The notes under the pieces: generated by a model | Databases searched by the model: none | Seen by the model: the letters and a program-made list of their open reading frames with translations, nothing else | What the model was told of the DNA's origin: nothing | Shown here: positions 14,269 to 46,234 of the stretch, piece by piece | Layout of the letters: every line of letters starts with the position of its first letter | Position numbering within the stretch: the first letter of the stretch is position 1 | Made by a program: the position numbers and the translations under genes | Assembly: GCA_021779255.1 (NCBI GenBank) | Contig: JAJYBC010000002.1 | Location: forward strand, 1 to 46,234 | Direction of reading: 5' to 3' | DNA length: 46,234 bases | From: a bacterium | GTDB taxonomy: Bacteria; Patescibacteriota; Minisyncoccia; CAIUEV01

Positions 14269-14324
14269 GATAAATATCTAATTCATCTAATTTCTAATAA
14301 AAATGCAGAAAAAGAAGGAAAATA

Positions 14325-14408: not shown

Positions 14409-15383
14409 TGACTTATTAGAGGAATTAGAAATTAGAAATTTTTTTGTTAACCTATTCGCTTCTTGACCATCTTTGACCCAGTGGATTCTTTTGTCTTTTT
14501 TAAACCAATTGATTTGCCGACGGGCAAATTGATAAATTTGTTTAGCCAAATTAATCTCAAGTTCTTGCCTGTTGATTTTATTTTGGAGAAAATAAGATAT
14601 ATACCTAGGTTCTAAACCCATTCTTTCCAGCCGAGCATAGTCGGCTTTTTTTTGAGAAATTATATTTTTTACTTCTTCAATCATACCTTGATTCAATCTC
14701 TCTTTTAATCTTTGAACAATTCGTTTTTTTAGAATTTCGTTAGAATAAATTTTTCCTAAAAAGAGAAAATTATATTTAGGTTCCGACTTTGGTTTGAAAC
14801 TGGCAAAACTTTGACCAGAGACAAGGCAAATCTCCAGAGCTCTTTGCAATCTTCTGGGGTTATTTTGATCGATACCAGTATAGGCCTCGGGATCTATTTT
14901 TAATAAATTTTGCTGGAGCTCTTCTAAACTCATTTTTTCCAGTTTTTGTCGAAGAGTCAGATCTTTTTTAAATTGAGGGAACTGCCAACCTTCTGTAATC
15001 GAATAAACGTAAAAAGGACTTCCGCCGACTACAATAGGTAATTTTTTATGATGTAAGATTTGATTAATAATTTTAAAAGCTTTTTGCTGAAATTCGGCCG
15101 AGCTAAATTCTTCGTTAGGCTCCAGAATATCAATAAGATAAGAGGGAATTGTTTGTTGGGACAGGTCGCGACCTGTCCGTACGCGGCCTGTCTCTGTTAT
15201 AATATATTCATTTTTGTCTTTTCCGGTGCAAAGATCGAGATAGCGATAAATTTGCCTAGAATCGGCCGAAATAATTTCACCGTCAAATTTGACGGCTAAT
15301 TCCACTCCCAGTCTAGTTTTTCCGCAGGCCGTCGGACCTACAACCGCCACCGCTTTGGGCAAATTAAATTTATCTTTTTGCAT
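14394..15383 (-). CDS. miaA: tRNA dimethylallyltransferase
   Basis: P-loop VVGPTACGKT, then IISADSRQIYRYLDLCTGK...YLIDI...IVVGGSPFY. It carries an in-frame insertion encoded by a REP-like palindrome (see findings). Confidence 0.9.
   Translation of the reverse strand: MQKDKFNLPKAVAVVGPTACGKTRLGVELAVKFDGEIISADSRQIYRYLDLCTGKDKNEYIITETGRVRTGRDLSQQTIPSYLIDILEPNEEFSSAEFQQKAFKIINQILHHKKLPIVVGGSPFYVYSITEGWQFPQFKKDLTLRQKLEKMSLEELQQNLLKIDPEAYTGIDQNNPRRLQRALEICLVSGQSFASFKPKSEPKYNFLFLGKIYSNEILKKRIVQRLKERLNQGMIEEVKNIISQKKADYARLERMGLEPRYISYFLQNKINRQELEINLAKQIYQFARRQINWFKKDKRIHWVKDGQEANRLTKKFLISNSSNKSGIKR
15158..15195. repeat. REP-like palindrome, family 1, inside the miaA coding sequence
   Basis: GGGACAGGTCGCGACCTGTCC GTACG CGGCCTGTCTC is the same palindrome as at 4121 plus a degenerate second right arm. 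On the minus strand it encodes ...TGRVRTGRDLSQ... Confidence 0.85.
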
Positions 15384-15414
15384 AAATTTCTAATTTTTAA
15401 AATTGACAATTACT

Positions 15415-16680: not shown

Positions 16681-16689
16681 AAAAAATTT

Positions 16690-17805
16690 CTAATTTCTAA
16701 TGGGCATGACAACATAGCTAAAATCAACCAAAGGTTTTTCCGTTTTTTTATCAATACCTTGAATTAAGGAGGGACCGTCACTTCCATTTAAGAAAAATAA
16801 AATTTCTTCCTCACTGATACTGTTTAATCCGTCCTGTAAAAATTGATAATTGAAAGTAACTTCGAATTTTTCTCCTCTAGTTTCTGCTGGCAGACTGGCG
16901 TGATGTTCTCCCAGTTCTCCTCCGGTTGCGTGTAAGGAAATTTTATCTTCTTCCAGCGCTATTTTTAAATCTTTGGTTTGAGTGGCGGAAAAAATGCCGG
17001 CGAGGCGTAAAGATCCCAATAATTCTTCTTTATTTATTCGAGCTTCAGCTTTAAAACTGGTAGGAATTATCTGCTTATAATCGGGATATTGACCTTCAAT
17101 TAAACGGCTGACGAAATAAACACCTTCATTTTGAAAAGCAATTTGATTCTCAGAAGTGATAATTGTAATCGGTTCTGAATTTTCACCAAAAATTCTTTCA
17201 GCTTCCTGCATACTTTTTCCTGGTACAATCAAAACAATCTCTTTATCGGATTTTTGTAAGAGTTTTATCGTTTTTTCGGCTAAACGATAACCATCAGTGG
17301 CGGCAATTTTAACCTCGTCTTGATTGATTGTTAAACAAACGCCGGTTAATTCCAATTTTGTTTCCAAAGTGGCGAGAGAAGGAGCGACTTTTTTGATGGC
17401 TTCGCTAAATAAACTACCTTGGACTTGAAAATTTTCACCTTCTTTGATTTGGGGAATCAAAGGAAAATCTTCAGCGGGGATGGTTCGTATTTTTGACTTA
17501 AAACTGGCGCTGGTTATTTTTAGAACCTGTTTTTCTTGTTCCAATGTGAGCTGGTCATCCTTGGAATTTTGAACAAAACTGGAAAGTAAATGAGCAGGTA
17601 CAGTTATTTTACCCTCTTTTTCCACTTTAGCGCGAACATAGCTGATCACTCCAATTTCCAAGTTGGTAGCTGATAATTTCAATAGTCCTTTTTCTGTTTC
17701 TAAAAGGATATTGCCTAAAATCGGCAAAGTAGGATTTTTTCCGACAGAACGTTCACAGCGAGCAATCCCTTTGCGAAGATTGTCGCGAGTACATATGATT
17801 TTCAT
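16690..17805 (-). CDS. dnaN: DNA polymerase III beta sliding clamp
   Basis: 371 aa. MKIICTRDNL...PILGNILLE...LKLSATNLE...DGYRLA...RLIEGQYPDY...MPIR are typical DnaN landmarks. Confidence 0.9.
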   Translation of the reverse strand: MKIICTRDNLRKGIARCERSVGKNPTLPILGNILLETEKGLLKLSATNLEIGVISYVRAKVEKEGKITVPAHLLSSFVQNSKDDQLTLEQEKQVLKITSASFKSKIRTIPAEDFPLIPQIKEGENFQVQGSLFSEAIKKVAPSLATLETKLELTGVCLTINQDEVKIAATDGYRLAEKTIKLLQKSDKEIVLIVPGKSMQEAERIFGENSEPITIITSENQIAFQNEGVYFVSRLIEGQYPDYKQIIPTSFKAEARINKEELLGSLRLAGIFSATQTKDLKIALEEDKISLHATGGELGEHHASLPAETRGEKFEVTFNYQFLQDGLNSISEEEILFFLNGSDGPSLIQGIDKKTEKPLVDFSYVVMPIRN

Positions 17806-17838
17806 GTTGAATCGTCAAGTTTAAATTTAAGAGCGAGG

Positions 17839-18969
17839 TTAGTTAGCGGCTGGTTCCCACTTTAATCTCTGTCCCGGTTCAAGAATTTCCACCCAAATTT
17901 GTCCCGGTACGAATTTGATTTCTTGACCGCTTTCGTCATAAAAGAATAATTTACTGCTAGCCGTAGACTTGTCTTTTTTCCAAGAACCTTTAATTTCTTG
18001 GCCATTTAGATAGTAGAAAGCTTCGCCTGAATCAGAACTGTCGAACCAAGGATCTCCCAGTTGAACGTTGTTATATTGACCCTCAATTTGAGCGGAAGCA
18101 GCAAAGAGAACGGCTACGTTTTTGGGCGCAATTCTCTTTCCGTTGTTACGGTCGGTATCTTCTTTACCATCCCAAGAACGGAGATAAGAGTTGGATTCTT
18201 TATCGTAATCATAGGCGGTATCGTAAGGGCTGGCAAAAGCTACTCTTAAATGACCACCGTTTGGTCGTTGATCCAAAGGAGCTTCGGCTTGATGAGGATA
18301 TCCAACGAATTGATCTTCCATTCGGTAACCAAAAGCTTTGGCCCCCTCCAATAATTTGGCAAATTTAGCATAACCGGAATCAACTCCGCGAGGCATACCC
18401 TCTTTACGGTAGCAATATTGACCGGCCGACTTACCGGCATCGTTATTACAGTTCATATCATCAATAACGCCACTGTTTAAAAGTTCCATAAATTTTTCAA
18501 TACTTGAGCGACCCCAATGAACAAAAATAGCGTCTAGTCCTTTGGCAATATGAACAAAATCGTGACGAGCGCTGCGCATAGAGCCGATATCTTCCGGATT
18601 GCCACAAACATAAACTCCCATCAAACGAGTGATAGAGGCAGTAATAACTGGCATTTCAAAGACCATATCCGCTTCGGAAAACCCAGAGGCTGGCCGAGCT
18701 GTAACGTCAGAAGGTTGCATTACGGCGAAAGGTCTGCGATTCCAATCGGCACAAGCGATACCAGATAGAGGGCTAACATTTCCGGTGTTAAGAATCGGTT
18801 GTTCCGCATTAACGGTAACGTTAGCATTTTGATTTTTCGATAGAAGATTATTCTTTTTGGATTTGCCCAAAATTAACCAGAGAACTAAAGAACCAACAAT
18901 TATTCCGAGAGCGATGGCAATGATCATAGTTTTGTTTTCTTGAACTTTTTGGAGCATTTTTTCTTTCAT
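17839..18969 (-). CDS. DUF3048-family (YerB-like) membrane-anchored protein
   Basis: N-terminal TM anchor, then SPLSG...RRPFAVM...ARPASGFSEADMVFEMPVIT-SITRLMGVY...MRSARHDF...AIFVHWG, matching the DUF3048 signature as I recall it. Confidence 0.65.
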   Translation of the reverse strand: MKEKMLQKVQENKTMIIAIALGIIVGSLVLWLILGKSKKNNLLSKNQNANVTVNAEQPILNTGNVSPLSGIACADWNRRPFAVMQPSDVTARPASGFSEADMVFEMPVITASITRLMGVYVCGNPEDIGSMRSARHDFVHIAKGLDAIFVHWGRSSIEKFMELLNSGVIDDMNCNNDAGKSAGQYCYRKEGMPRGVDSGYAKFAKLLEGAKAFGYRMEDQFVGYPHQAEAPLDQRPNGGHLRVAFASPYDTAYDYDKESNSYLRSWDGKEDTDRNNGKRIAPKNVAVLFAASAQIEGQYNNVQLGDPWFDSSDSGEAFYYLNGQEIKGSWKKDKSTASSKLFFYDESGQEIKFVPGQIWVEILEPGQRLKWEPAAN

Positions 18970-19045
18970 TGATTTTTGGTTAATTTTAAATAATGAATTT
19001 AAGAATTTAATTTATTGTGATATGTTTTTTCAAAAAAGAAAAGTT

Positions 19046-20233
19046 TCAAAAGAAAATTCGTCGGAGGTGTTGGGGAATATGAACCAAAATTTCGTAAGGA
19101 ATAGTCTCGCAAAGTTTGGCTATATTTAAAACAGAATTTTTATCTTTGGGATTTCGACTGATTAAAATAACTTTGTCGCCAACCTTTATTTCCGGTAAAG
19201 AGCTAACATCCACCAAACTAATATTCATACTTATTCGTCCAACGATCGGACAAAATTGTTCTTTAATTTTGTAATAACCTTTGTTGGATAATCGGCGATC
19301 TATTCCTTCGAAATAGCCGGCCGGAATAGTCGCTATTTTTGTGGTTCGATTAGCTCTATAAGTGATACCATAGCCGACGTATTCGTCTTTCTCGACTGTT
19401 TTAAGACCGGTTACAATCGTTTGCATTTCAAGAGTTGGTTTTAATTTGATTTTTGCGAAAGGAGAAGGATTAAAACCGTGTAAACCGATACCTAAACGAA
19501 TTACGTTGGTTGTTTGAGCTAATTTATTTTCTGAAAATGGCGATTTAGTCCTATTTTCAGTCCAATTGGTATAATAGCTACCGCCGGTGGCGGCCAAATG
19601 GAAAAATTTAATTTGAGGAAATTCTTGGCGCCAAAGTTGGCTGGCTTTTTGCCAATTTTCAATTTGGTAAAGAGAATAATTTTTATTTTCATTATCGGCG
19701 TTGCAAAAATGAGAGCAAAGACCGTCGAGAATTAGATGAGGATTTTGTTTGATCAGTTGGATGGCTTCCGAAATTTCTTTAATTAAAATACCTTGCCTGT
19801 GCATACCGGTGTCGATTTTTAAATGAAAATGTTGCGGTTTAAATAATTTTTTCGTCAAGTTCTTTAATTGGTTCAAACTAGTGATTGTAAAAGCAATATT
19901 TTTTTGGCGATTAGCGACAATGTCTTCGTTTCTAGTAAAACCGATTATTAAAATGGGCGATTTAATTTTTGCATTTTTAAGAGTGTTAGCTTCAAAAAGA
20001 GAATCTACCACCAAAAAAGCGATTTTTTCTTTATCCAGTATTTTGGCCGTTAAGACTAGATCGTGACCATAAGCGTTGCTTTTAAGGACGGGCGCTATTT
20101 GATGGTGAGGAAATTCTTGTTGAAAAGAATGCAAATTAGTTAAAAGATGTTTTTTAGAAACAAAAATCTCAATCAAAGGATGATGTCCGTTAAGATTTTT
20201 TTTAATTTGGCGTAAAAAATCAAAGATTCTCAT
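19046..20233 (-). CDS. alr: alanine racemase
   Basis: The PLP-lysine motif PVLKSNAYGHD, the TIM-barrel N-domain and the C-terminal beta domain (VGYG...IPAGYFEG...GRISMN). Confidence 0.85.
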   Translation of the reverse strand: MRIFDFLRQIKKNLNGHHPLIEIFVSKKHLLTNLHSFQQEFPHHQIAPVLKSNAYGHDLVLTAKILDKEKIAFLVVDSLFEANTLKNAKIKSPILIIGFTRNEDIVANRQKNIAFTITSLNQLKNLTKKLFKPQHFHLKIDTGMHRQGILIKEISEAIQLIKQNPHLILDGLCSHFCNADNENKNYSLYQIENWQKASQLWRQEFPQIKFFHLAATGGSYYTNWTENRTKSPFSENKLAQTTNVIRLGIGLHGFNPSPFAKIKLKPTLEMQTIVTGLKTVEKDEYVGYGITYRANRTTKIATIPAGYFEGIDRRLSNKGYYKIKEQFCPIVGRISMNISLVDVSSLPEIKVGDKVILISRNPKDKNSVLNIAKLCETIPYEILVHIPQHLRRIFF

Positions 20234-31213: not shown

Positions 31214-31597
31214 ATGAAATCAAAAAATAAAAAGGTGTTGATTGTGGAGGACGATCCTTTTATTGCTGATGTCTATACTTTAAAGTTGGAAAGCGAGGGT
31301 TATAACGTTGATTTGGCTGAAGACGGTTTGCGTTGTTTGGAAAAAATGCGAAAAAATAAATATGATGTGGTTTTGTTGGATATTATTATGCCCAATATGG
31401 ACGGCTTTGCTACTATGGAAAGAATTAAAATGTCTCCGGAACTTAATACCACTCCTGTGATTATTTTAACCAATTTAAGTCAAAAAAAAGATATCCAGAA
31501 GGGGATTGATTTGGGGGCGGTTGATTATATCATCAAAACTCGTTTTACACCGACTGAAGTGCTGAAAACAATTGATAAAGTTGTTGGCGAAAAATAA
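31214..31597 (+). CDS. receiver-only response regulator embedded in the pil operon (PilG/PilH-like position)
   Basis: VLIVEDDPFI...DVVLLDIIMPNMDG...VIILTN...DYIIK are receiver motifs. There is no output domain. Confidence 0.85.
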   Translation: MKSKNKKVLIVEDDPFIADVYTLKLESEGYNVDLAEDGLRCLEKMRKNKYDVVLLDIIMPNMDGFATMERIKMSPELNTTPVIILTNLSQKKDIQKGIDLGAVDYIIKTRFTPTEVLKTIDKVVGEK

Positions 31598-34161: not shown

Positions 34162-34599
34162 ATGAGTTGCGGAAAATGTAAAAAAACTAAGAAAACTAAA
34201 AAAACCAAGAAAAAAGGTTTTACCCTTATGGAGCTTTTAGTGGTGGTGGCTATTATTGGAATTTTAGCCGCTATTGTTTTGGTTTCTTTGAATAGCGCGC
34301 GAAACAAAGGTAAAAATGCCGCTATTAAAGCTCAGATGGCTCAATTGCGATCAGCTGGCGAAATGTACAATGAAGAAGTCGGAGATTTCACAGGATGGTG
34401 TGCTAATTCAGAAGCAGCTAGAATCACCCAAGGAGCGATTGATTCGGGAGGAACTCTTCCTAACTGTGATGATAACAATGCAGCTTGGGCTTCGGAGATT
34501 ACTTTGGTTGGCACAACCGATCTTTGGTGTGTTGATTCGACCGGTGTTTCAAAACAGATCACGGCTTCCAAAGGCGCAGACACAGTGGCTTGTCCATAA
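34162..34599 (+). CDS. type IV pilin (probable major pilin)
   Basis: Class III signal ...KKKG/FTLMELLVVVAIIGILAAI with Gly at -1 and Glu at +5, four Cys in the C-terminal globular part, a strong RBS and a strong terminator. It is the last gene after pilC. Confidence 0.9.
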   Translation: MSCGKCKKTKKTKKTKKKGFTLMELLVVVAIIGILAAIVLVSLNSARNKGKNAAIKAQMAQLRSAGEMYNEEVGDFTGWCANSEAARITQGAIDSGGTLPNCDDNNAAWASEITLVGTTDLWCVDSTGVSKQITASKGADTVACP

Positions 34600-36287: not shown

Positions 36288-36403
36288 TTGTGCGGATGAA
36301 TTTTGTATTGTTGTGCGGATGAATTTTGTATTGTTGTGCGGATGAATTTTGTATTGTTGTGCGGATGAATTTTGTATTGTTGTGCGGATGAATTTTGTAT
36401 TTG
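36288..36403. repeat. tandem array, 5 copies of the 23-bp unit TTGTGCGGATGAATTTTGTATTG
   Basis: Counted directly. Units start at 36288, 36311, 36334, 36357 and 36380; the last carries one extra T. Confidence 0.95.
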
Positions 36404-36412
36404 TATTATTGT

Positions 36413-36437
36413 AGAGACGGGTCTCAGACCCGTCTCT
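36413..36437. repeat. 25-bp palindrome AGAGACGGGTCTCAGACCCGTCTCT (left copy)
   Basis: An 11-bp GC-rich stem with a 3-nt centre, identical to the copy at 37027..37051. Confidence 0.95.
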
Positions 36438-36518
36438 TTTTATGTAATTAAAAAAAATTGAGGATTTTTTAATATTTTTTTTATTATTTTTTAATGATGT
36501 TTGGATTATAATTTAAAT

Positions 36519-37058
36519 ATGACCCAATTATTATTTCAAAATAAATATCGAATACCGTCCATTCGATTGAAAAAACACGATTATTCATTGTCGCGGTATT
36601 ATTTTATTACAATTTGTACTCACAATAAAAAATATATTTTGGGAAAAATTATGAATAATAAAATGAAATTATCATGGGTGGGAAAAATTATTAATACCGT
36701 TTGGAAAAATTTACCCAAATATTACTCCAATTGTGTTTTAGATGAGTTTGTAATTATGCCCAACCATATTCATGGTATTATTTATATTAAAAATACCTCT
36801 GGAAATAAAAAACATACATTGTCGGACATTGTCCGATCGTTTAAATCGTTTTCAACGCGGGAAATTAATCGCGTGCAAAAAACACCAAAAAATTTATTAT
36901 GGCAAACACGTTTTTATGAAAATATAGTCCGTGATGGAAATGCATTGGAATCAATCCGTCAATATATTCGGAACAATCCGTTAAAATGGTATCGCGATCG
37001 AAATAATTTTTATTTTGTTGAGAAAAAGAGACGGGTCTCAGACCCGTCTCTACAATAA
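36519..37058 (+). CDS. IS200/IS605-superfamily Y1 (HUH) transposase, REP-associated tyrosine transposase (RAYT)-like
   Basis: YFITICTHNKK..., HUH motif MPNHIHGII, SFKSFSTREIN, and the C-terminal LWQTRFYENIVRD...YIRNNPLKW carrying the candidate catalytic Tyr region. The last codons read through the right palindrome. The ATG at 36519 is preferred over the TTG at 36501. Confidence 0.8.
   Translation: MTQLLFQNKYRIPSIRLKKHDYSLSRYYFITICTHNKKYILGKIMNNKMKLSWVGKIINTVWKNLPKYYSNCVLDEFVIMPNHIHGIIYIKNTSGNKKHTLSDIVRSFKSFSTREINRVQKTPKNLLWQTRFYENIVRDGNALESIRQYIRNNPLKWYRDRNNFYFVEKKRRVSDPSLQ
37027..37051. repeat. 25-bp palindrome AGAGACGGGTCTCAGACCCGTCTCT (right copy)
   Basis: Identical to 36413..36437. It overlaps the 3-prime end of the transposase CDS. 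Confidence 0.95.
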
Positions 37059-37065
37059 TACAAAT

Positions 37066-37203
37066 ACAAAATTCATCCATACAACAATACAAAATTCATC
37101 CATACAATAATACAAAATTCATCCATACAATAATACAAAATTCATCCATACAATAATACAAAATTCATCCATACAATAATACAAAATTCATCCATACAAT
37201 AAT
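37066..37203. repeat. tandem array, 6 copies of the 23-bp unit ACAAAATTCATCCATACAATAAT (inverted relative to the left array)
   Basis: Units start at 37066, 37089, 37112, 37135, 37158 and 37181. They match the reverse complement of the left unit except for 2-3 fixed differences (CCATAC versus CCGCAC). Confidence 0.95.
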
Positions 37204-37251
37204 ACAAAAATACCTCCGTGTTCATGGGTTTTTAGACTGAGATGTCGAATC

Positions 37252-37764
37252 TTATTTGACTTCTTCGCAACGATCCTTAGTATCGCAGGAACAACCAGGG
37301 ACAGTGCCGGTAGTACTGCCGTCATTGCAAGTAAAGATGCCAGTGCTGAAACCGGTAGCCGAAAAAGTATATCCCGAGTTAATAGTAGCTGCTGGAATAT
37401 TACCTGACCAAGCGGCGTCAGCCAACATAGTGACAGTTGTTGAGCCTATTGTAACACTGTAGGTTATGCCTTGAGGAGCAGATTTGATATTGGCGTAAAT
37501 TTTATCAGTTCCGGTGCCAGAAGCACAAGTCAAAGAACCCCCAGTTGTAGCGGCTGTATCAAATTTAATAGTGCGACAGCCTTCACTGGCGGCCATTTCA
37601 TAACCTTTGGATAGTTCCATCATATCCGCTTTAGCTTTGGTGGCCAAGGCTTTTTTACGTCCGCCAGCCACGCTAACAACTACAATTGTGGTTAAAATTC
37701 CAATAATAGCCACTACCACCAACATTTCCACTAGCGTAAAGGCTTTTTGTTTTAGTTCTTGCAT
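37252..37764 (-). CDS. type IV pilin-like protein (Ala at the predicted -1 position)
   Basis: MQELKQKA/FTLVEMLVVVAIIGILTTIVV with Glu at +5. The C-terminal part is Cys-rich (7 Cys). Confidence 0.85.
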   Translation of the reverse strand: MQELKQKAFTLVEMLVVVAIIGILTTIVVVSVAGGRKKALATKAKADMMELSKGYEMAASEGCRTIKFDTAATTGGSLTCASGTGTDKIYANIKSAPQGITYSVTIGSTTVTMLADAAWSGNIPAATINSGYTFSATGFSTGIFTCNDGSTTGTVPGCSCDTKDRCEEVK

Positions 37765-37839
37765 TTTTTGTTTACACTTTTAAAGATAAATTTTTTTAGT
37801 TCGAATATCCTTTAAAATTTTAATAAACCCCTTACTTTT

Positions 37840-38388
37840 TTAGTCGGCGCATCCCCCGCTAACTGAACAAAAACAGCCGGAATTTTTACAGGAATAGAGA
37901 GCTGAAGCAGAAAAACCAGAACCTTTACTACAATAAGTCGGATTGGAGCTGAGAGTTATGGTTGTGCTCGGAGTTCCGTTAGCTGTCCAATTAGCTCCCC
38001 CTGTGGCCGAGTAATATTTTTCACCAGCAACAGGAGTTCCAGTGCAACCGGTAGCCGAATTACTGTCCACATTAATATAATAAGTAAAACCACTGGGTGG
38101 AGTCGATAAAGTAGCGTATTCTTTTGTGGTTCCATCAGGTAAAGTTCCAGATAACTTTAAGTTGGTAGAACCATTCGTGACAGTCAGTGTGTTACAACCC
38201 TCAGCACTAGCTATAGCCATAACATTATTTAATTGAGTTAGATCAGCTTTGGCGCGGGTAGCGTTGGCTTTTTGGCGGGCGCCAGCAATAACAAACGTAA
38301 TAATTCCAGCCAGCACACCGATGATGGCGATAACCACCAACATTTCGATGAGAGTAAAAGCTCTCTTTTTGTTTTGCATTTTTTTCAT
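37840..38388 (-). CDS. type IV pilin-like protein (Ala at the predicted -1 position)
   Basis: MKKMQNKKRA/FTLIEMLVVIAIIGVLAGI with Glu at +5. The C-terminus contains CSKG...CKNSGCFCSVSGGCAD. Confidence 0.85.
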   Translation of the reverse strand: MKKMQNKKRAFTLIEMLVVIAIIGVLAGIITFVIAGARQKANATRAKADLTQLNNVMAIASAEGCNTLTVTNGSTNLKLSGTLPDGTTKEYATLSTPPSGFTYYINVDSNSATGCTGTPVAGEKYYSATGGANWTANGTPSTTITLSSNPTYCSKGSGFSASALYSCKNSGCFCSVSGGCAD

Positions 38389-38482
38389 TTTTTAGGTTAA
38401 TTTTTAACTAAACGAAAAAACAAATAATTTTAACTTCTATATATTTTATATATTCCAAGAAAAAATAAAAGTTGTCAAGGAA

Positions 38483-39409
38483 TTAGAAATTTTTCTCCTT
38501 GTACTCTTTTTCTGTCGGTATTTGAAAATCAATTAATTCTTGAATTGCAGGGGGTTTTTGACTGGGCTGATTGTCGAAAGAAAGCTCCTGATAGCTAATT
38601 TTAACGGTTCCAATTTCCGGAACTAACCAAACTGTCCAATCAGCTTCGACTAGGTGTTTTTCTTGACCAACCTGCTGTTTTTTAGTTAGAGTGATTTTTA
38701 TTTTTTGGGCGGAAAAATTACCGGCAGGAACGTTGATTTCTTCTATGCCCAGTACTTCCCAATAAGTTTGCCAATCTTCTTTTATTTCTCGAGGTTTATC
38801 ACTAGGATTTTCGGCAGTTGTGGATAAGTTGTTGAAAACTTTGCGATTGAGACAAAAATTCTCGACCCAATTGTTGCCTGCTGAAAAGTCTGAATCAAGC
38901 GGTAAAAAAAGATCTTGAGTCTTAGGATCACAAGGCTCAGTAATAATTTGCCCTTGGTTTTGAATCTCCCAGAAATTTAAATCGGATAATAAAATTTTAT
39001 TATCTTGGCAAGCAACGTTTGATCTAACAGTCCAGTTATCCGGACCAGCTAATCGTCCATCTAAAAATGTTAAATTTTCTTCTGGCGCCGGAATGTCGAG
39101 AGTAAGTATTTTCTTCTGATCGCCTTCGGTTAATTGATAGCGCCAGTGAGAACCAGAAATAAAAGGAAAATAGCGACTTTGACAGAAAAGAGGTGCGGTA
39201 ATGACATTTTTTTCTATCTCTTTTTGCAATTTCTGTTTTTCAATCGGGGTTAAAGTGTCGATTGGCGGTTGGCCGTGAATAATTTTATCAATAGTGGAGA
39301 AGCCTTCGTTCCAGTAGCTGAATAAGCCGACTTGAGCGACATCAGTGTACTTTATGAGTAAGGCTAGCAATAGGCTAACGATTAATATGAGGATAAAGTT
39401 GAAACGCAT
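38483..39409 (-). CDS. hypothetical secreted or membrane-anchored protein, first gene of the pilin pair operon
   Basis: N-terminal hydrophobic anchor MRFNFILILIVSLLLALLI on a 308-aa protein with no recognisable motif. It is on the same strand as, and immediately upstream of, the two pilin genes. Confidence 0.65.
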   Translation of the reverse strand: MRFNFILILIVSLLLALLIKYTDVAQVGLFSYWNEGFSTIDKIIHGQPPIDTLTPIEKQKLQKEIEKNVITAPLFCQSRYFPFISGSHWRYQLTEGDQKKILTLDIPAPEENLTFLDGRLAGPDNWTVRSNVACQDNKILLSDLNFWEIQNQGQIITEPCDPKTQDLFLPLDSDFSAGNNWVENFCLNRKVFNNLSTTAENPSDKPREIKEDWQTYWEVLGIEEINVPAGNFSAQKIKITLTKKQQVGQEKHLVEADWTVWLVPEIGTVKISYQELSFDNQPSQKPPAIQELIDFQIPTEKEYKEKNF

Positions 39410-39459
39410 GAGAAATAAATTTTAAACTTTATTATATCAACCCCTTTGGCCTAAGAAGG

Positions 39460-39492
39460 CCACTTCCCCCCCAGCAGGGTGACTTCTCCACT
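39460..39492. repeat. family-2 core, solo copy C (no long stem)
   Basis: CCACTTCCCCCCCAGCAGGGTGACTTCTCCACT. Its reverse complement shares GTGGAGAAGTCACCCTGC (18 nt) exactly with copy A. The right flank AAAATTGAAAA resembles the flank of copy B. Confidence 0.75.
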
Positions 39493-39625
39493 AAAAATTG
39501 AAAATTCTTTTTACTAACACTCTATAGAAAAAATATAATTTATAATAATTGTAAGAAATTAAATTTCTCTTTTATAATAAACGGAAATAACTTTTGACAT
39601 CATTATTTAATAATTTAACTGAAAA

Positions 39626-42600
39626 ATGAAAATAAAAAACAAAAAAAGACGAATCATAGGAGCTTCGATGGCTTTTTGGCTTTTGGGAGGTCAATCGTTT
39701 CTGGCTCTATTGACCATCTCGACCTTATTTTTTAGTGGGAGCTCTTTGGCTCAAGCTTTTTCTTTTGACCGAGCAACTTTTAAAGATTTTCGCTATAGTA
39801 CGGGGACTTTAAATTATTTGGAGAGGATTGATTTGAACAGTTTGGTTAATCAACCACTTAAAATACCGTTTACCAGTCAAAATCCGGAACAAATTCCGGG
39901 AGGCGATCAAGACTGGCTGATTGTTCATCCTCCGGTATTACTCAACCAAAATGCAACCATACCCCTAAGAGTTGATTATTTGTCTTCCGGTCCGGATATT
40001 AGTCGAGAAGATGCACAATTTGTGCAAGAAGTGGGAAATCAAATCAATACTATTGCTAATAATAATCCGGTATTGATTGAAATTGTCAAAAATTTGTTGG
40101 AAAGAAATTTACAAGTTTCCGTTAAAGATGAGTCAAGTTTACTATCTCTTCTTTTCCAGAAAGTTAAAGCGGCCGATACCACAGACAATTCACTTCTTTT
40201 AACGAGCAGTGAACAAAATTCCTTGGGCTTAACTAATTTAGACACAACCAATCCACAAGTCAGGCAGCTCCTAATGGTTATGTTTCTGTTGCTATTAAAT
40301 AATCGATCATTGGCCACGTCGGTTAATCTTGATGAAACGGATTGCGTGAACAGCGGAGGACAATGGGTTAACGGAGCTTGTCAAAACGAACAGACGACTC
40401 TTTGTCAAAATAATGGAGGAATTTGGAAAAAATTTACCAATCAATGTTTGGCTGATCGCCAATTTTGCACTAATTCCGGTTTAAGTTGTACCGGTGTAAC
40501 CAGCACTGATCCTTTTTACGGTTGCGCTTGCAAAACTGGTTCTTGTATCGACGAACAAGATGGTTCTTGTATTCCTCGCAGTGAGAGTAAGAGAGGTAAA
40601 TGTGAAGGATCAAAAGGAACTTGGCAAGAGAGACCTTCTTCCAAGGAAGTTTGTTTGCAACAATGTGATACGACCGAAGCTGATTGTGCCTCGGCTTCGA
40701 CTAGCGACTATACTCAAAGTTATGATTCTAATTTTTATAATAATGGAAATGATAATAGTTCGGCTAGTTTAACTTCGGCCGGTTGCAAATGCCCAGTTAA
40801 CAAATGTCTTTCCTCAGCGGGAGAATGTATCGCCAAGGATGTCTCTAAGTTAGACGACGATAAAGACGGAGTGAATAATACCAACGATCGTTGTCCTAAT
40901 ACGCCTGCTGGCGAAACGGCTAATAATGTCGAAGGAAACGTCAATCGAGGTTGCTCCTGTTCGCAGTTGCAATCGATGGGTAAAATTGCTCAACCCCAAT
41001 GTCCGCCCGACGGTTGCGAGAGCAACTATTTAGTGAAATATGATCGATCGGCTCTGAACAATATGGTTCTTTGCCAAAGTGGAGTTATTCAACAACAAAA
41101 TACTAATTCCAACAGCGCTTGCCCAGTTATTTCTCGTTATCCCGAGGCTCAATGCAATCAGAATAACAATCAAAATCAAAATCAAAATAGCAACTTGGAG
41201 GATTTGTTGAAAAAAATGATGCAAGATAAAAACAAAAAAAAGGATCAAGGCAAGCAAAACCAAGGCGGTGGCAACGGTGGTAATCAAGGTAATCCGTCTC
41301 AACAACAACAGCAGCAACAACCCCAAGGAAATACCAATAATAACAATGATCTCAGCACGCTAGTTAAAAAGCAAGAAACCGGCAACGATCCTTCAGGAGT
41401 GGGAGCAGTTAACGCCGAAATAGACCGAGGAAGCGCCAAAAAACCATTTATTCTGCACGTCAGTCAATTTACCAAGATTTGTAATAGCAATACCTATGTT
41501 TTGACCAATGCCAAAGCAGCGGTTGGCAAATTTCGTAATAAACCGGTCGATAATAAACAAGCAGCTAGTAGTGGCCCAAATAAATTTAAAGGTTGCGGCC
41601 CGCAAGGTTGTCCGGTTGACAAAAATGCCAGAGATCAGGCCAATAAAGTTATCGACAGTGTTAAGGACTGGTCGAAGTATTCCAAAGAAACGGTCGACAA
41701 GATTAACGAATTAGTTAAAACTGATAAACCGGATAATAATACAGCTCAAACGATCAATAATCTTCTTACCAACGGTGCCGCTTCCACCAGCACCGGTCCG
41801 CAATTAGGTGAAGCGGGAAGTATGTTGAATGTGGGCAATGGCGATGTTTATTTCAAAGTGCCGGAGTGTAAAGAACTGGCTTCTTGCCATTGCTGCGCTT
41901 GTGGTTGTTGCGAAAAAGGCAAACCGGACGGTCAATGTGGTTGGGCTTTAGGCAAAGATTGCAAGGAGGGCAAATGTACTGGTGCCGCTTGTTTACAAAA
42001 AACGGTGGATAAATGTCAGGAGAAACAGGAAACAACCATTCAGTTGGATTTTGGCACAGGGGATGTATTTAAATGCTCCAACGAAGGCAGTCAAGCCAAG
42101 ACTATTCAAGATAAATGTAAAACTTTTCAAGAAGATAAAGGTAAAAATTCTTTCCATAACGGTATTTGTAACTATGATTGTGGAGCGGCCAGTGTCGATC
42201 AAAATACCGGTTGTGGCGATAAAAAATACAGTGATTGTGAAATTATTATTCCCAGCGCTCAAAATAATCCGGTCAGATTTAACGTTAAAGGTTCTGAAGT
42301 TGTTGATAAAAATGACGGCGGTACAGCTAAGTTTACTAACCACGAAAAAGGTAGCTTATTGCAAGCCCAGCCTAATTCTTGGGCGGACGGTGGTTGGGTA
42401 AAAGAGCTGGAAGACAAAGAAGGCACTTGCTGCAAATGTATGGCGGAAAAAGACGTCAAACAGCCGGGAAATGCCAAACCGACTGATGATATTAAAAATG
42501 ATCCTTTATGGGACACTTGGGATGAAGGTGTTACACCACCTGTCAAAATTACACCCAATACGGTTCCGCCAATCGGTCAGGTGCCAAACGCCGGAACAAC

Positions 42601-42898
42601 TAGTACAGACAAAATTTCTGATGATCAGAGAAATGAAATTCTAAAAAGAGGCTGGAGCGATCCGGAACGCCAAGATTTAATTAATTACGAAAATTTAAGG
42701 AATAAAGAAAAAATAACGACTCCTCCTACTTTTGAGGATATGCGGAATGCCAAACAGTACAATAATTTTCTAGATAATAGTGGCCATGGTTGGATTTATA
42801 AATATGTTACCGGACCAACTTTTACCGAATGGAAAACTGATTCTTGGCTTAAAGAATATCAAAGATGGAATCCAAACTACACGAGAACCTTGGAGTAA
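39626..42898 (+). CDS. giant secreted cysteine-rich protein with a thrombospondin-type-3-like Ca-binding repeat and a Q/N-rich linker
   Basis: Signal peptide ending SLAQA/FSF on a 1090-aa protein with about 50 Cys by my count. It carries DDDKDGVNNTNDRCPNTP (DxDxDGxxDxxDxC, TSP3-like) and the linker NQNNNQNQNQN...QQQQQQQP. It is a paralog of the next large gene. Confidence 0.85.
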   Translation: MKIKNKKRRIIGASMAFWLLGGQSFLALLTISTLFFSGSSLAQAFSFDRATFKDFRYSTGTLNYLERIDLNSLVNQPLKIPFTSQNPEQIPGGDQDWLIVHPPVLLNQNATIPLRVDYLSSGPDISREDAQFVQEVGNQINTIANNNPVLIEIVKNLLERNLQVSVKDESSLLSLLFQKVKAADTTDNSLLLTSSEQNSLGLTNLDTTNPQVRQLLMVMFLLLLNNRSLATSVNLDETDCVNSGGQWVNGACQNEQTTLCQNNGGIWKKFTNQCLADRQFCTNSGLSCTGVTSTDPFYGCACKTGSCIDEQDGSCIPRSESKRGKCEGSKGTWQERPSSKEVCLQQCDTTEADCASASTSDYTQSYDSNFYNNGNDNSSASLTSAGCKCPVNKCLSSAGECIAKDVSKLDDDKDGVNNTNDRCPNTPAGETANNVEGNVNRGCSCSQLQSMGKIAQPQCPPDGCESNYLVKYDRSALNNMVLCQSGVIQQQNTNSNSACPVISRYPEAQCNQNNNQNQNQNSNLEDLLKKMMQDKNKKKDQGKQNQGGGNGGNQGNPSQQQQQQQPQGNTNNNNDLSTLVKKQETGNDPSGVGAVNAEIDRGSAKKPFILHVSQFTKICNSNTYVLTNAKAAVGKFRNKPVDNKQAASSGPNKFKGCGPQGCPVDKNARDQANKVIDSVKDWSKYSKETVDKINELVKTDKPDNNTAQTINNLLTNGAASTSTGPQLGEAGSMLNVGNGDVYFKVPECKELASCHCCACGCCEKGKPDGQCGWALGKDCKEGKCTGAACLQKTVDKCQEKQETTIQLDFGTGDVFKCSNEGSQAKTIQDKCKTFQEDKGKNSFHNGICNYDCGAASVDQNTGCGDKKYSDCEIIIPSAQNNPVRFNVKGSEVVDKNDGGTAKFTNHEKGSLLQAQPNSWADGGWVKELEDKEGTCCKCMAEKDVKQPGNAKPTDDIKNDPLWDTWDEGVTPPVKITPNTVPPIGQVPNAGTTSTDKISDDQRNEILKRGWSDPERQDLINYENLRNKEKITTPPTFEDMRNAKQYNNFLDNSGHGWIYKYVTGPTFTEWKTDSWLKEYQRWNPNYTRTLE

Positions 42899-42947
42899 TA
42901 ATTGCGATAAATTCGGATATACTCGAGAATCAGCTTGAATAGTCAAG

Positions 42948-43154
42948 ATGGAATTGTTTTTTATTTCTTTAGAAAAAAATCCTTTTGAACTTAAACTCAA
43001 AACACATAAAGTGCAATCAAAAGTAGTCTATAAAGCTTGGAGCAGTAGAATATCTGGGGATTTAAGAGTAATTTGGGACTTTAATCAGGACAAAATAGGT
43101 GTTATAAATTTGCTAGATATTGGTGGCCATTCTGGAAAAAATAAAGTTTATTGA
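42948..43154 (+). pseudogene. RelE/YoeB-superfamily toxin-like ORF, N-terminally truncated, no antitoxin partner
   Basis: NPFELKLKTHKV...KAWSSRISGDLRVIWDFNQDKIGVINLLDIGGHS...VY aligns by eye with the C-terminal two thirds of RelE/YoeB toxins. An in-frame TGA 12 nt upstream leaves no room for the first strand and helix. Confidence 0.45.
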
Positions 43155-43198
43155 AAATAAAAATATGTTATTATAAAAAATAAAGTTTTGTTTTTAGT

Positions 43199-43340
43199 TT
43201 CGAACTTTTTCAACTTTTTGAATTTCTTTTTCTCAGTATCTAAATTTTTTTATGGGGTTTGCTACGCAAAACATAAAAAAATTTAGATACTGAGAAAAAG
43301 TAGTTGCCAAAAATGGCAAAAAAAGTTGAAAAAGTTCGAA
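43199..43340. repeat. 142-nt nested perfect hairpin just upstream of the second giant gene (copy E, different apex)
   Basis: The outer 21-bp perfect stem pairs 43199-43219 with 43320-43340. The inner 29-bp perfect stem pairs 43226-43254 with 43272-43300. The apex is GGGTTTGCTACGCAAAA, and there is a side mini-hairpin TTGCCAAAAATGGCAA. It ends 33 nt before the ATG at 43374. Confidence 0.85.
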
Positions 43341-43373
43341 GAAATAAGATTTTTTCATTTAATCTTTCTTTAC

Positions 43374-46234
43374 ATGTTTCTGCAAAACAAAAAGAAAAAA
43401 AATAGTTTAGTAAGATCTATTGGCATAGCTGTGGTGGCTTTTTTGCCTGTTTCGTCATTTATTTTGGCGGTTGTGATTGGTTTTTGGACGGAAAAAGCGC
43501 AAGCGGCAATAACTAATAAATTTCCGGACATCAAAGCGTACGCCAAAGTGATTAATATTCCCAGCTTTTTTGGTAAACCGGTGCGAATCCCTATCCCTTC
43601 AGATAATCCGGATAAAATTCCGGGGGGTGATCAAGATTTTCTTTATGTTTATCCACCTCAAATTTTATTGAATGTCAAAGCGAAAACGGCAGTTTCTTAC
43701 CCGATTAAATCAGTTTATCTGGCTTCGGGCGGTTATATTAGCGCCGAAAAGGAGAAAACGGTTAAAGAAGGAGTAGAAAACTGGATTAATAATTGTTTTT
43801 GTAATCAACAGCAATTATTGAAAGATTTGAAAGATATTGTGGTTAATCGTTCAACGGAGCCAAAAAAAGTGAGCTATTTTGAATTTTTGCAAAGTGTTTT
43901 TCCGATTATCAAAGTTAAAGCGGCTGATGCGACCGCTACCGATACAACTGCGACCACGAGTAGCACGGACAGCACGGCTCAGCTGGAAGCTTTAATGAAC
44001 TCTGATGATCCACAGGCCAAACAGATGCTGATGCTTTTGCTTCTCAATTTATTACTCTCGCAAAAATTAGCTGAAGCCAGTAATTTAGACAAAGATCAAT
44101 GTTTGGCTCAAAGCGGAGAGTGGATCAACGAAACTTGTTATTTACCAACCAGCAATTCTGCGACTGGTGGAACGTCTACTGATACCGCGAACACCGCTGC
44201 TACTAAAACTAAGGCTTGCACCAACTCTAACGGTAAATGGAAAAGTTTTACTTCTTCCAAGAATCTTTGTTTGGCGCAGTGTGGTAAATCGGCCAGTAAA
44301 TGTACGGGAACTAATCTTTCCGATTTTGAAGATGAATACGGAATTTATTTGAACGAGAATGATCCGAATTTGGCCGGTTGTCAGTGTGAAACTGGTCTTT
44401 GTGCCGATGTGGAGGGCAATTGTATCACTCAGGACAAAGGTCTTCTGGATGATGATGACGACGGAGTTTTAAATAAAGATGATCAATGTTTGAAAACGGC
44501 TGCCGGTGAAACGGTTAATACGGCAATTGGCGATGCCAACGCCGGTTGTTCTTGCTCCGACTTGGCCAAGAAAGGTAAAATTCGTCAGCAAGTAACTTGT
44601 CCCGCTAATGCTTGCGATGCCCAGTACATGGTGACTTATCCGCAGGGTGGATCAGACTCTTGTTCGAACGGAGTTGTTACCGCTTTTAACTGTACAGCAA
44701 CGCGTACGGCTGATCAGACTTGTAATGATGCTTATCAACAAGAACAAGCTCAAAAACAACAACAAGATCAGCAGAAGCAACAGGCTTTGCAAGATTTATT
44801 GAAACAATTAATGGGCGGTGGCCAACAAGGCGGTGGTCAAGGAGGTGGCCAAGGCGGTGGTTGCGGCGGCGGTCAAGGCGGCGGACAACCCAGCAGTGGG
44901 CAACCCAGTAGCGGTGGTCCCAGTGGCGCCAGTCCCAGCAGTCCGGCAGCCACCACTCAAACACCAGCCCAGACGGCTCCGGCTCCAACAATTTCACAAA
45001 AACAGGATTTAACAACTGGTGATACAATGACAACAGCTACTGATCCAAAAAGTGGAGAGACAGTGGCACAATCGGTTACTCAGTACGATCCTTCTACTGG
45101 GAAAACCACAACGACAGACGTTACTTCTTCTGGACCATTAATGGATTCAACTAGTCAAGCAGGAACAACGCCCAATATGGATAATCTTTATGGAAAAGGT
45201 AGTTCTTTTGGAGAGTATCCCAACACAGTGGCAGGTACAACTCCGTTTAGTGATCCTAGCAACATTAAACAAGAGGGAACGGCTCCTTTTCAGCAGCAAA
45301 TTACAGATTCTACTAAACCTGGAGACATTGGAAACAGCGGAAAACAGGGCCAAGCAGGTGATGATTGGGGTGGTTCTACCCCTCAAAATCCTTATGCTCC
45401 CGGTACTCCTGTCGAGAGTCTTCCTCCTAGTGCAAATACTCCTGATCCTAGTACCCAACCTCAGACCCAGCCTGCTCCTGACGCCCAAACTCCACAGTCT
45501 GAGACATTGAATTCCTATACAGACGATAAGGGTAGTATAACTGGATATGAAAAAGTTCAGACAGATCAAAATGGGAGCACAACGACCTATTATGATAAGG
45601 ATGGTAATAAGATTAACGATAAGCCAGAAGGGACATTGAATAACCAGCCAGTTAATCCTAAAACAGGAGGGTCTTCTTCAGAAGGGACACCAATACCTGA
45701 AGGGACAGCTAGTGAGGCTGGCACAGGAATTGGAGGAGGTCCAGGACAAGTTAATACAGAGGCAGCTACAACAAATCAATCAATTTTAGATAATCCTCAA
45801 AGTGCTACGCCGGAGCAGTTAAATAGTGCTGTAAATGACGCAACAAACACTTTAAACGACCCAAGTTTTCAAGAAATGTTGAATAGTGGAGATGCTATGG
45901 CTCTTGGAAACGCGCAAGACATAGTAAACTCACCTGGTTTTCAGCAGGCAGTTGCCAATGGAGATGTAGCAGCTACCCAAGCAATGACAAACACAGTTAA
46001 TTCCCCAACATTTCAAGATGCAGCTACTCAAGGTTTCGGAAATACTAGTCCATTGGGTGATAGCGGTTTTTGGACAGAAGGAAATGCTACTAATTCCGCA
46101 GGAACTACTTTAGGTCAAATGGGTTCGAGCGACCCAAATGCTTTTAATGGGGGCATTTTTGGTAGCTCTGAGAATATTCCAACTGGAGATGCTGGTGCCT
46201 CGACTTGGGGGACGGAAACGATGGGAGGGCAAAT
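43374..46234 (+). CDS. giant secreted protein, paralog of 39626..42898 (3-prime partial, runs off the window)
   Basis: This ORF is not in the supplied track because it has no stop in the window, so I translated it by hand. It reads MFLQNKKKKNSLVRSIGIAVVAFLP...EKAQA/AITN, then IPGGDQDFLYVYPP, DPQAKQMLMLLLLNLL, LDDDDDGVLNKDDQC...AGCSCSDL and a GGGQ/PSS linker. All are collinear with the first giant protein. The frame stays open to the last base. Confidence 0.85.
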   Translation, partial: MFLQNKKKKNSLVRSIGIAVVAFLPVSSFILAVVIGFWTEKAQAAITNKFPDIKAYAKVINIPSFFGKPVRIPIPSDNPDKIPGGDQDFLYVYPPQILLNVKAKTAVSYPIKSVYLASGGYISAEKEKTVKEGVENWINNCFCNQQQLLKDLKDIVVNRSTEPKKVSYFEFLQSVFPIIKVKAADATATDTTATTSSTDSTAQLEALMNSDDPQAKQMLMLLLLNLLLSQKLAEASNLDKDQCLAQSGEWINETCYLPTSNSATGGTSTDTANTAATKTKACTNSNGKWKSFTSSKNLCLAQCGKSASKCTGTNLSDFEDEYGIYLNENDPNLAGCQCETGLCADVEGNCITQDKGLLDDDDDGVLNKDDQCLKTAAGETVNTAIGDANAGCSCSDLAKKGKIRQQVTCPANACDAQYMVTYPQGGSDSCSNGVVTAFNCTATRTADQTCNDAYQQEQAQKQQQDQQKQQALQDLLKQLMGGGQQGGGQGGGQGGGCGGGQGGGQPSSGQPSSGGPSGASPSSPAATTQTPAQTAPAPTISQKQDLTTGDTMTTATDPKSGETVAQSVTQYDPSTGKTTTTDVTSSGPLMDSTSQAGTTPNMDNLYGKGSSFGEYPNTVAGTTPFSDPSNIKQEGTAPFQQQITDSTKPGDIGNSGKQGQAGDDWGGSTPQNPYAPGTPVESLPPSANTPDPSTQPQTQPAPDAQTPQSETLNSYTDDKGSITGYEKVQTDQNGSTTTYYDKDGNKINDKPEGTLNNQPVNPKTGGSSSEGTPIPEGTASEAGTGIGGGPGQVNTEAATTNQSILDNPQSATPEQLNSAVNDATNTLNDPSFQEMLNSGDAMALGNAQDIVNSPGFQQAVANGDVAATQAMTNTVNSPTFQDAATQGFGNTSPLGDSGFWTEGNATNSAGTTLGQMGSSDPNAFNGGIFGSSENIPTGDAGASTWGTETMGGQ

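Follow-up and report, generated by a model that had tools for sequence, protein, structure and literature searches.

Two neighboring genes, A and B, located at the end of a 46,234-nucleotide stretch of contig JAJYBC010000002.1 (assembly GCA_021779255.1; this whole stretch of DNA is referred to below as the window), encode members of a new and very small protein family, in which two novel modules can be distinguished. One of them, the N-module, is shared by A and B, and the C-module, which occupies much of the distal half of A, is encoded in other genomes by a separate gene, C, adjoining the B-type gene. The ultra-small, uncultivated source organism resembles Moranbacteria and belongs to the Candidate Phyla Radiation (CPR; Patescibacteria). 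We propose that these products may be exported, disulfide-stabilized, calcium-binding surface proteins, in which the N-module and the C-module would form a unit serving for close-range contact with another cell, and we give this reading about an even chance of being correct. An earlier note, based on the letters of the window only, had described A and B as giant secreted proteins and candidate adhesins or host-interaction factors; at about 1,000 residues, they are large rather than giant.

A and B are true paralogues, as the earlier note had supposed: residues 1–488 of A and 1–435 of B give a single collinear BLASTP alignment (32% identity, E = 8e-45), and no significant alignment was found beyond it. 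The N-module common to the two proteins is about 490 residues long. All the motifs which the note had listed were recovered in both proteins upon comparing the sequences. The hydrophobic N-termini both end in AQA (residues 42–44), and they are followed by an IPGGD-type motif (IPGGDQDWLIVHPP in A, IPGGDQDFLYVYPP in B), a Leu-rich helix (LLMVMFLLLLNN in A, MLMLLLLNLLL in B), a Cys-patterned motif (CVNSGGQWVNGAC in A, CLAQSGEWINETC in B), and a Ca-binding repeat motif (LDDDKDGVNNTNDRCPNTPAGETAN in A, LDDDDDGVLNKDDQCLKTAAGETVN in B) with GCSCSQL in A and GCSCSDL in B. The last shared motif, L-x-DLLK-x-x-M, reads LEDLLKKMM in A and LQDLLKQLM in B and leads in each case into low-complexity sequence, which is Q/N-rich in A and of the (GGGQ)n type in B.

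The architecture of the N-module (Table 1) was examined using an AlphaFold2 (AF2) model of residues 1–523 of A based on a 29-sequence alignment, which showed a mean predicted local distance difference test score (pLDDT) of 71.6 and values of about 90 over residues 240–360 and 385–520. The K/R-rich start, the hydrophobic stretch and the AxA sequence of the predicted export signal were also present in the other family members inspected. The N-domain, for which AF2 predicts an alpha/beta fold (pLDDT 56–84), is found in the proteins P0057, P0077, P0081, and P0082 either by itself or behind a DUF11 domain. Since the N-domain or N-module of P0057 and P0077 is not N-terminal, being preceded by a region of about 500 residues containing a DUF11 domain, the module is also used in other architectures. 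DUF11 domains are common in cell-surface proteins. The N-domain and the Leu-rich helix are separated by a poorly conserved acidic/Thr-rich loop. The helix itself is strikingly conserved and was predicted by AF2 at residues 210–225; a standard transmembrane helix would require a hydrophobic run longer than the one of about 14 residues present here, and this assignment was rejected.

Two further signal-peptide-like segments were noticed inside the exported part, at positions 40130–40330 of the window (residues 170–235 of A, approximately) and in the same region of B. Both consist of a hydrophobic or amphipathic helix with a small-x-small end followed by an acidic residue. The first (...LLSLLFQKVKA|AD) was seen by eye, and the second, which is the Leu-rich helix (...LLLLNN-x-SLATS|VN or AEA|SN), is present in most of the family members inspected. 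They may represent sites of processing, remnants of a gene fusion, or segments acting on membranes.

The cysteine-rich region of A includes two units which resemble each other (E 1e-5), and the first of them resembles the single unit of B (E 2e-12). Its Cys columns are invariant across genomes and the AF2 model reaches a pLDDT of about 90 there. In the small Cys domain, the invariant columns are C459, C464, Y468, Y472, C483, G486, V487, and C510, and the pLDDT is mostly 77–93, falling to 66 at residues 491–500. A carries 50 Cys residues in all, of which the N-module accounts for 26 and the C-module for 24, none being present in the linker or the tail. B carries 20 in its N-module and one at residue 497, in the Gly-rich linker.

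Each protein harbors a single thrombospondin type 3 (TSP3)-like repeat, in which the calcium-binding sequence motif DxDxDGxxDxxDxC(P) is present as DDDKDGVNNTNDRCP in A and DDDDDGVLNKDDQCL in B. The repeat of A is 54% identical over 59 residues to those of the OmpA/TSP3 protein P0002 (pairwise E 1e-12). This comparison defines one bacterial TSP3-type unit, D-x-D-x-DG-V-x-N-x-x-D-x-C-P-x-T-P-x-G-E...G-C-S-x-S-Q, common to A, B and the OmpA-family proteins; the GCSCS sequence, which had been taken to be an element separate from the Ca-binding repeat, is the end of this same unit. The repeat segment of A was matched by about 47 OmpA/TSP3 proteins in a word-indexed search. The Pfam model TSP_3 (PF02412) did not reach its gathering threshold in A (16.4 bits versus 25), gave no match in B, and was found in none of the 29 family members scanned at E <= 1e-3. 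In the proteins combining TSP_3 with OmpA (PF00691), the repeat is present in at least five copies, whereas A and B have one copy each and no tandem array. In contrast to the OmpA-family proteins, neither A nor B possesses an OmpA domain or a beta-barrel; the repeat makes up only about 4% of the protein, and the remainder is unrelated.

Beyond the N-module, the composition counts agreed with the earlier description of a Cys-rich and then Trp/Tyr-rich distal half in A and a T/S/P/G/Q-rich one in B. Residues 500–600 of A consist of 20% N, 19% Q, and 11% G, with a DNA tandem repeat at 41155–41193, and residues 440–953 of B consist of 15% G, 14% T, 11% Q, 10% S, 8% A, and 8% P, with a DNA tandem repeat at 44826–44888. 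The C-terminal half of B is of low complexity and is probably disordered. The G+C content amounts to 45.7% at positions 44001–46000, versus roughly 35–40% elsewhere in the window; this rise coincides with the Gly/Thr/Pro/Ala/Gln-rich coding of the B tail and is probably an effect of amino acid composition rather than a sign of foreign DNA. The view that the distal halves are variable does not apply to A: its distal half is a conserved module, which also exists as a stand-alone C gene beside B-type genes.

Homologs of the C-module were identified as stand-alone C-type proteins at the loci L001, L003, L033, L035, L037, and L038, and a C-type gene adjoins the B-type gene at all eight loci examined (L001, L003, L033, L034, L035/L036, L037, and L038, where this occurs twice). 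The C-type proteins, which are 340–435 residues long, consist of a hydrophobic N-terminus, a low-complexity stretch and the sequence PYKLEPNQFKK-C-x-NTYVL...CHCC...C-IIIxD...GWV-x-L...CCKC. At locus L001, the contig of protein P0001, the 354-residue protein encoded directly after the B-type gene aligns with residues 729–941 of A (E 1e-13; E 6e-8 in another comparison). The alignment of twelve C-module sequences contains 13 invariant Cys columns, and the profile matches all the A-type proteins and no B-type protein; the match with A itself (E 1e-72) involves one of the profile's own source sequences. The AF2 model of this module has a mean pLDDT of 64.7, with strands at both ends and a low-confidence Cys-rich middle part.

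In a neighbor-joining tree of 34 N-modules, the A-type proteins fall in one clade and the B-type proteins in others. All the members of the A clade carry the C-module apart from the 739-residue P0062, and the B-type proteins do not carry it. Since the distal half of A is conserved and is also encoded as a separate C gene beside B-type genes, A is best described as a fusion of a B-like N-module protein with a C-like module. The tandem duplication claimed in the earlier note holds in so far as A and B are paralogous neighbors, but it is neither simple nor recent: since the N-modules of the two types fall into different clades across genomes, the duplication is old, with both copies retained side by side in other genomes, and a recent duplication was rejected. 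A C-type gene is predicted to lie just beyond the end of the window. At locus L038, a 902-kb scaffold, positions 10001–19404 carry two B–C pairs in tandem with a 460-residue low-complexity protein between them; there is no A-type or D gene at this locus, and proteins without any Pfam match are encoded downstream of the pairs. Directly after the B–C pair of L001, at 4798–6948, we noted a gene encoding a 716-residue protein with an N-terminal VirB2-like T4SS_pilin domain (PF18895; 30.2 bits versus a cut-off of 26.6), the same TSP3/Cys element as in A and B, and a C-terminal HExxH-type motif (HESTH). The PF18895 domain is absent from A and B.

The family is small and restricted to one lineage. 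A full HMMER scan of 1.84 billion cluster representatives with a profile of the part of the N-module upstream of the repeat yielded 36 proteins, 35 of them at E <= 1e-10, without any twilight tail. The clusters examined contained 1–3 sequences each, and the only taxon labels were Candidatus Moranbacteria and Moraniibacteriota. When residues 1–500 of A were used in a word-indexed search of 5.8 billion proteins, P0001 was the only true relative retrieved, and the other matches were OmpA/TSP3 proteins matching the repeat only. Such searches are insensitive for this family, as they returned one true match for A, seven for the C-module and one for D. The full-length A orthologues at L003, L033, and L035 are 37–41% identical to A. 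B shows 40–44% identity with the B-type orthologues at L001, L003, and L033 over 466–499 aligned residues, and the complete orthologues are 701–1019 residues long.

The earlier note had recognized no named family for the N-terminal module, and none was found in our searches of Pfam, NCBIfam and PDB sequences; nor was any enzyme or S-layer family matched at significance. The only Pfam matches in A and B were two sub-threshold ones, both in A: the TSP_3 match mentioned above and Glyco_hydro_109_C, which we discounted (E 0.098, 12.4 bits versus 27). Pfam gave nothing at E <= 1e-3 in the 29 family members scanned individually and nothing significant in the C-type proteins. No NCBIfam model matched A, B, C, or D. 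The family proteins had no match in PHROGs or PADLOC, which argues against phage or known defence origins. Neither A by itself nor the profiles of the two modules gave anything significant in searches of PDB sequences. The AF2 models of residues 1–523 and 599–946 of A were submitted to Foldseek: with the N-module, no match was obtained at E <= 1e-3 in PDB or BFVD, the latter giving nothing, and with the C-module PDB yielded only generic weak matches (E >= 0.4), several of them to small beta-rich domains such as cupin and GOLD. Neither a prepilin leader (G-FTLxE) nor an N_methyl match was detected in A or B. No LPXTG, SLH or other wall-binding domain was found by Pfam, and no LPXTG sequence occurs at the C-termini of A and its complete orthologues. 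Toxin, peptidase, nuclease and immunity domains were not found in the 29 family members or in the proteins of the window. In our literature searches, no paper describing this family was found.

The cassette unit consists of a divergent gene, D, followed by A, B, and C. Gene D gave a weak match with the DUF3108-like family (PF21347; E 1.2e-4, 22.5 bits versus a cut-off of 27), for which we know of no function; the L035 orthologue of D and the protein P0094 carry recorded PF21347 matches. This resemblance concerns D only. Orthologues of D that are 34–37% identical to it occupy the same divergent position before the A-type genes on the L033, L035, and P0058 contigs. The gene order PilC, pilins, RNase Y, D, A-type, B-type was found at L033, at L035/L036 and on two P0058 contigs, with the C-type gene next where the contig continues. 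The window contains the same genes as the L033-type order, with the segment from RNase Y to the pilins rearranged. The pilus-gene neighborhood pointed out in the earlier note therefore recurs in other genomes, as the cassette lies beside type IV pilus genes in all four close relatives having an upstream flank. D, A, B and the two pilins adjacent to D are only 32–45% identical between genomes (36–43% in the case of the pilins and their L033 and L035 counterparts), versus 76–80% for RNase Y and 65–78% for the putative major pilin in the same genomes, a contrast which fits a fast-evolving set of surface or interaction genes.

The two pilins adjacent to D have Cys motifs at their C-terminal ends (GCSCDTKDRC and GCFCSVSGGC), and similar ends occur in their L033 and L035 orthologues. 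They resemble the GC-x-C-x4-C element of the cysteine-rich units of A and B, a likeness which could be due to chance or could reflect a shared disulfide knot or a docking element.

Table 1. Features of the A–B locus and of the neighboring pilin genes (coordinates are those of the window).
Feature	Position	Strand	Description
Gene A	39626-42898	+	Listed open reading frame (ORF), 1090 residues; A-type: N-module, linker, C-module, Trp/Tyr-rich tail
A residues 1-44	39626-39757	+	Basic start, long hydrophobic stretch, AQA; predicted Sec signal peptide or signal anchor (hydropathy scan)
A residues 60-185, N-domain	39803-40180	+	Motif SF-GKPV-IP-S-NPD-IPGGD-DY-Y-YPP...SGK-I, near-invariant (family alignment)
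A residues 210-231, Leu-rich helix	40253-40318	+	DP-x2-KQLLMLLLLNLL-x-Q-x2-AEA type
A residues 240-401, cysteine-rich region	40343-40828	+	Short C-x-SGG-W-x-N-x-C element and two cysteine-rich units of 70-90 residues; one unit in B
A residues 408-447, TSP3-like repeat	40847-40966	+	DDDKDGVNNTNDRCPNTPAGE...GCSCSQ; single copy
A residues 448-512, small Cys domain	40967-41161	+	CPPDGC...Y-V-Y...C-x-GV...C
A residues 513-598, linker	41162-41419	+	Q/N/G/K-rich low complexity, contains LEDLLKKMM; no Cys
A residues 599-946, C-module	41420-42463	+	PF-LH-SQFTK-C-NTYVL...CHCC...C-IIIP...GWV-L...CCKC; 24 Cys
A residues 947-1090, tail	42464-42898	+	144 residues, Cys-free, 7 Trp, 6 Tyr, then stop codon; weakly conserved in A-type orthologues
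A-B spacer	42899-43373		475 nucleotides
68-residue ORF in A-B spacer	42948-43154	+	Gene call on ENA contig L002; status uncertain
Gene B	43374-46234 (window end)	+	At least 953 residues, incomplete; N-module, Gly-rich linker, putatively disordered tail
B residues 1-471	43374-44786	+	Signal-like N-terminus (AQA 42-44), N-module with one cysteine-rich unit
B residues 357-396, TSP3-like repeat	44442-44561	+	LLDDDDDGVLNKDDQCLKTAAGETVN...GCSCSD; single copy
B residues 472 to at least 953	44787-46234	+	LQDLLKQLM, (GGGQ)n with lone Cys 497, G/T/Q/S/P-rich tail
Gene D	38483-39409	-	308 residues, hydrophobic N-terminus, weak DUF3108-like match; divergent from A
Prepilin genes beside D	37252-37764, 37840-38388	-	Pfam N_methyl and NCBIfam prepilin models; co-oriented with D
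Putative major pilin	34162-34599		N_methyl match
Two promoter-like sites upstream of A, D-A intergenic region	39510-39578	+	Sigma-70-type consensus matches

The strongest functional clue is the fusion/fission pattern, which leads us to expect joint action of the N-module and the C-module, probably within a complex. In the mechanism which we propose, the lineage-restricted D–A–B–C cassette would provide these two modules in alternative forms. The N-module comprises a predicted alpha/beta N-domain with IPGGDxD-YPP, the Leu-rich helix, one or two cysteine-rich units, the TSP3-type repeat, and the small Cys domain, and the C-module has predicted strands at both ends, which enclose a Cys-rich insert delimited by CHCC and CCKC. 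A carries both modules on one chain, and in the other form the N-module is part of B while the C-module is part of a separate C protein. By gene-fusion logic (A fused, B and C separate), the two modules would work together, most likely by binding each other, and B and C together would be the two-chain equivalent of A. The long Q/N/G/S/T/P-rich spacers might hold the folded parts off the cell. The complex would serve for close-range contact with, or adhesion to, another cell and could complement the adjacent type IV pilus.

A contact role of this kind would fit the episymbiotic lifestyle of the cultivated Patescibacteria. In Saccharibacteria, epibiotic growth depends on a type IV pilus and on several adhesins (PMC10633639), and a two-step model has been proposed, in which contact by the pilus is followed by the action of close-range adhesins (PMC11623550). 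A survey of type IV secretion in Patescibacteria found no PrgB-like adhesins in the group (10.1101/2025.01.22.634366). The saccharibacterial minor pilins PilX1 and PilX2 and the adhesins found to be essential by transposon sequencing (Tn-seq) share with A and B the same broad group of organisms, a context combining a pilus with surface proteins, and a presumed need for close-range adhesins (PMC11623550, PMC10633639). The PilX proteins, however, are themselves pilins, to which accessory domains are attached, and neither A nor B is a pilin. We detected no homology between the two sets of proteins, and the present family was found only in Moranbacteria-like genomes.

Several points weigh against a contact role. 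The export signal was judged by eye and from hydropathy, and it contains a hydrophobic stretch of unusual length (about 30 residues). The location of the proteins, their disulfides, their calcium binding and their binding partner are predictions made from the sequences, and the lifestyle attributed to the source organism is that of its relatives. Given the no more than moderate confidence of the AF2 models (mean pLDDT 71.6 and 64.7), our searches could have missed a remote fold link to an enzyme or another family. The synteny with pilus genes was observed only among close relatives, in which RNase Y is 76–80% identical, and at the more distant locus L038 there is no pilus operon beside the B–C pairs: upstream of the first B-type gene, only a 453-residue prepilin-like protein and ComEC are encoded. 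This synteny may consequently be a matter of shared ancestry and inherited gene order rather than of function.

The same neighborhood bears on the possibility that A to D belong to the type IV pilus itself as accessory components, forming a complex associated with its tip or base and docking on the two Cys-tailed minor pilins, which we regard as unlikely. The immediate proximity of the cassette to pilin genes in the four close relatives is in keeping with such a role, as are the co-orientation of D with the two pilins in the window, the similarly fast evolution of the cassette and these pilins, and the GC-x-C...C ends of the latter, which are like the cysteine-rich units of A and B. Like A and B, the PilY1/PilC adhesins are large proteins other than pilins whose genes adjoin those of minor pilins, and the relationship, if any, would be one of functional analogy rather than homology. 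PilY1 carries a DxDxDG-type calcium site, and the corresponding sequence motif is present in A and B. PilY1 is also discussed in PMC11623550. A and B show no sequence or fold similarity with PilY1/PilC: no beta-propeller or von Willebrand factor type A (vWA) domain was detected by Pfam or by Foldseek with the two models, no Pfam family covers A or B, and Foldseek gave no significant match at all. A prepilin leader is present in their neighbors but not in A or B. At L038, which has two B–C pairs without an adjoining pilus operon, the association with pilus genes does not hold, at L033 the pilins and D belong to different transcription units, and the presence of the housekeeping RNase Y gene in the same conserved block suggests that the adjacency may be inherited.

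It is likewise rather improbable, in our view, that the proteins are structural components of the envelope, a matrix or a coat (a surface layer, a wall scaffold, or a mucin-like coat) without any specific partner cell. The predicted export signals, the many putative structural disulfides and the long mucin-like low-complexity stretches would suit such a function, the lone Cys of the Gly-rich linker of B could cross-link chains, and the TSP3 repeat is common to OmpA-type envelope proteins. The best Foldseek matches of the N-module were the D assemblies of von Willebrand factor (VWF) and gel-forming mucins, in which cysteine-dense, calcium-binding extracellular modules are joined by long low-complexity stretches; the likeness is one of style only, as these matches were not significant (E 0.36, probability 0.41, TM score about 0.11). 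For a core envelope component, one would expect a wider distribution than that of a family of 36 representatives in 1.84 billion with clusters of 1–3 sequences, no SLH, LPXTG or other wall-anchor signature was found, and fast divergence suits an interaction surface better than a scaffold. As regards secreted effectors or polymorphic-toxin-like proteins, with an N-half for export or targeting and a C-half as payload, the combination of a conserved N-half with differing C-halves is superficially suggestive, small downstream genes can be imagined as partners, and at L001 the VirB2-like pilin fusion with the same TSP3/Cys element comes after the B–C pair. We nevertheless consider this very improbable, in view of the lack of any toxin, peptidase, nuclease or immunity domain in the proteins scanned. 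Polymorphic toxins have a variable C-terminal toxin domain and an immunity gene, whereas the C-half of A is a disulfide-rich module conserved across genomes rather than a swapped payload, that of B is of low complexity and probably disordered, and the gene following the B-type gene encodes a predicted secreted paralogue of the A C-module with its own hydrophobic N-terminus, which is not immunity-like. A still bolder conjecture, to which we attach very little credence, is that the strictly conserved Leu-rich helix (DP-x2-KQLLMLLLLNLL...AEA), which resembles an internal signal peptide although the rest of the protein would be extracellular, might be released on contact from a disulfide-locked, calcium-dependent complex and insert into the partner's membrane as a bridge, a pore or a fusion factor. 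If this were true, the cassette would be an unrecognized host-contact machine of non-saccharibacterial Patescibacteria, consisting of membrane-active proteins rather than passive adhesins.

At the locus itself, the reading frame of gene B is open from 43287 through the final base of the window without interruption, and the ATG at 43374 is its likely start, since the resulting MFLQNKKKKNS... agrees with the starts of the orthologues. The only other contig carrying gene B, the ENA contig L002, stops at the identical base and differs from the window within gene B by a single base, near position 44928. At positions 1–120 of L002, compared with 36395–36470 of the window, additional copies of a repeat of about 24 nucleotides, TTGTATTATTGTATGGATGAATTT, are present directly upstream of the first of the two palindromes described below. 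These differences in repeat copies and in one base are variations between assemblies of one population. The small ORF in the A–B spacer had no match in Pfam, PHROGs, or PADLOC, and no convincing terminator was seen on the + strand of this spacer. The promoter-like sites between D and A are the best two sigma-70-type matches (10/12) in a scan of positions 37000–46234, and this is a matter of resemblance to the consensus only.

The remaining genes of the window are ordinary chromosomal ones, among them gatB, gyrA, fusA, dnaN, tsf, and rpsB, together with a complete operon for the type IV pilus. Response regulators consisting of a single domain are encoded by three tandem genes on the - strand (4198–4584, 4702–5097, and 5107–5478) and by a fourth gene (31214–31597, +) located between pilB and pilT within this operon; we noticed no histidine kinase gene in the window. 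A tRNA-Ala (TGC) gene at 1657–1731 overlaps the 5' end of a 237-residue ORF (1653–2366), the true start of which is probably downstream of the tRNA, since its NYN domain begins only at residue 69. The gene of an IS200-like Y1 transposase (36501–37058) is flanked by two identical 25-nucleotide palindromes, AGAGACGGGTCTCAGACCCGTCTCT (36413–36437 and 37027–37051), the second of which overlaps the 3' end of the gene; by chance, no such palindromes would be expected. A distantly related Y1-like gene (27% identity) is present at the equivalent spot of L033, between the pilins and RNase Y, the segment that is rearranged between L033 and the window.

The value of these findings is limited by the fact that the family is tiny and belongs to one uncultivated lineage, in the genomes of which lineage-specific secreted 'dark' proteins are common. 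The cassette nevertheless provides two new modules, a fusion/fission pattern predicting a physical complex, and a fixed place beside fast-evolving minor pilins. For the recognition and holding of partner cells by ultra-small Patescibacteria other than Saccharibacteria, the D–A–B–C cassette constitutes a concrete set of candidates.

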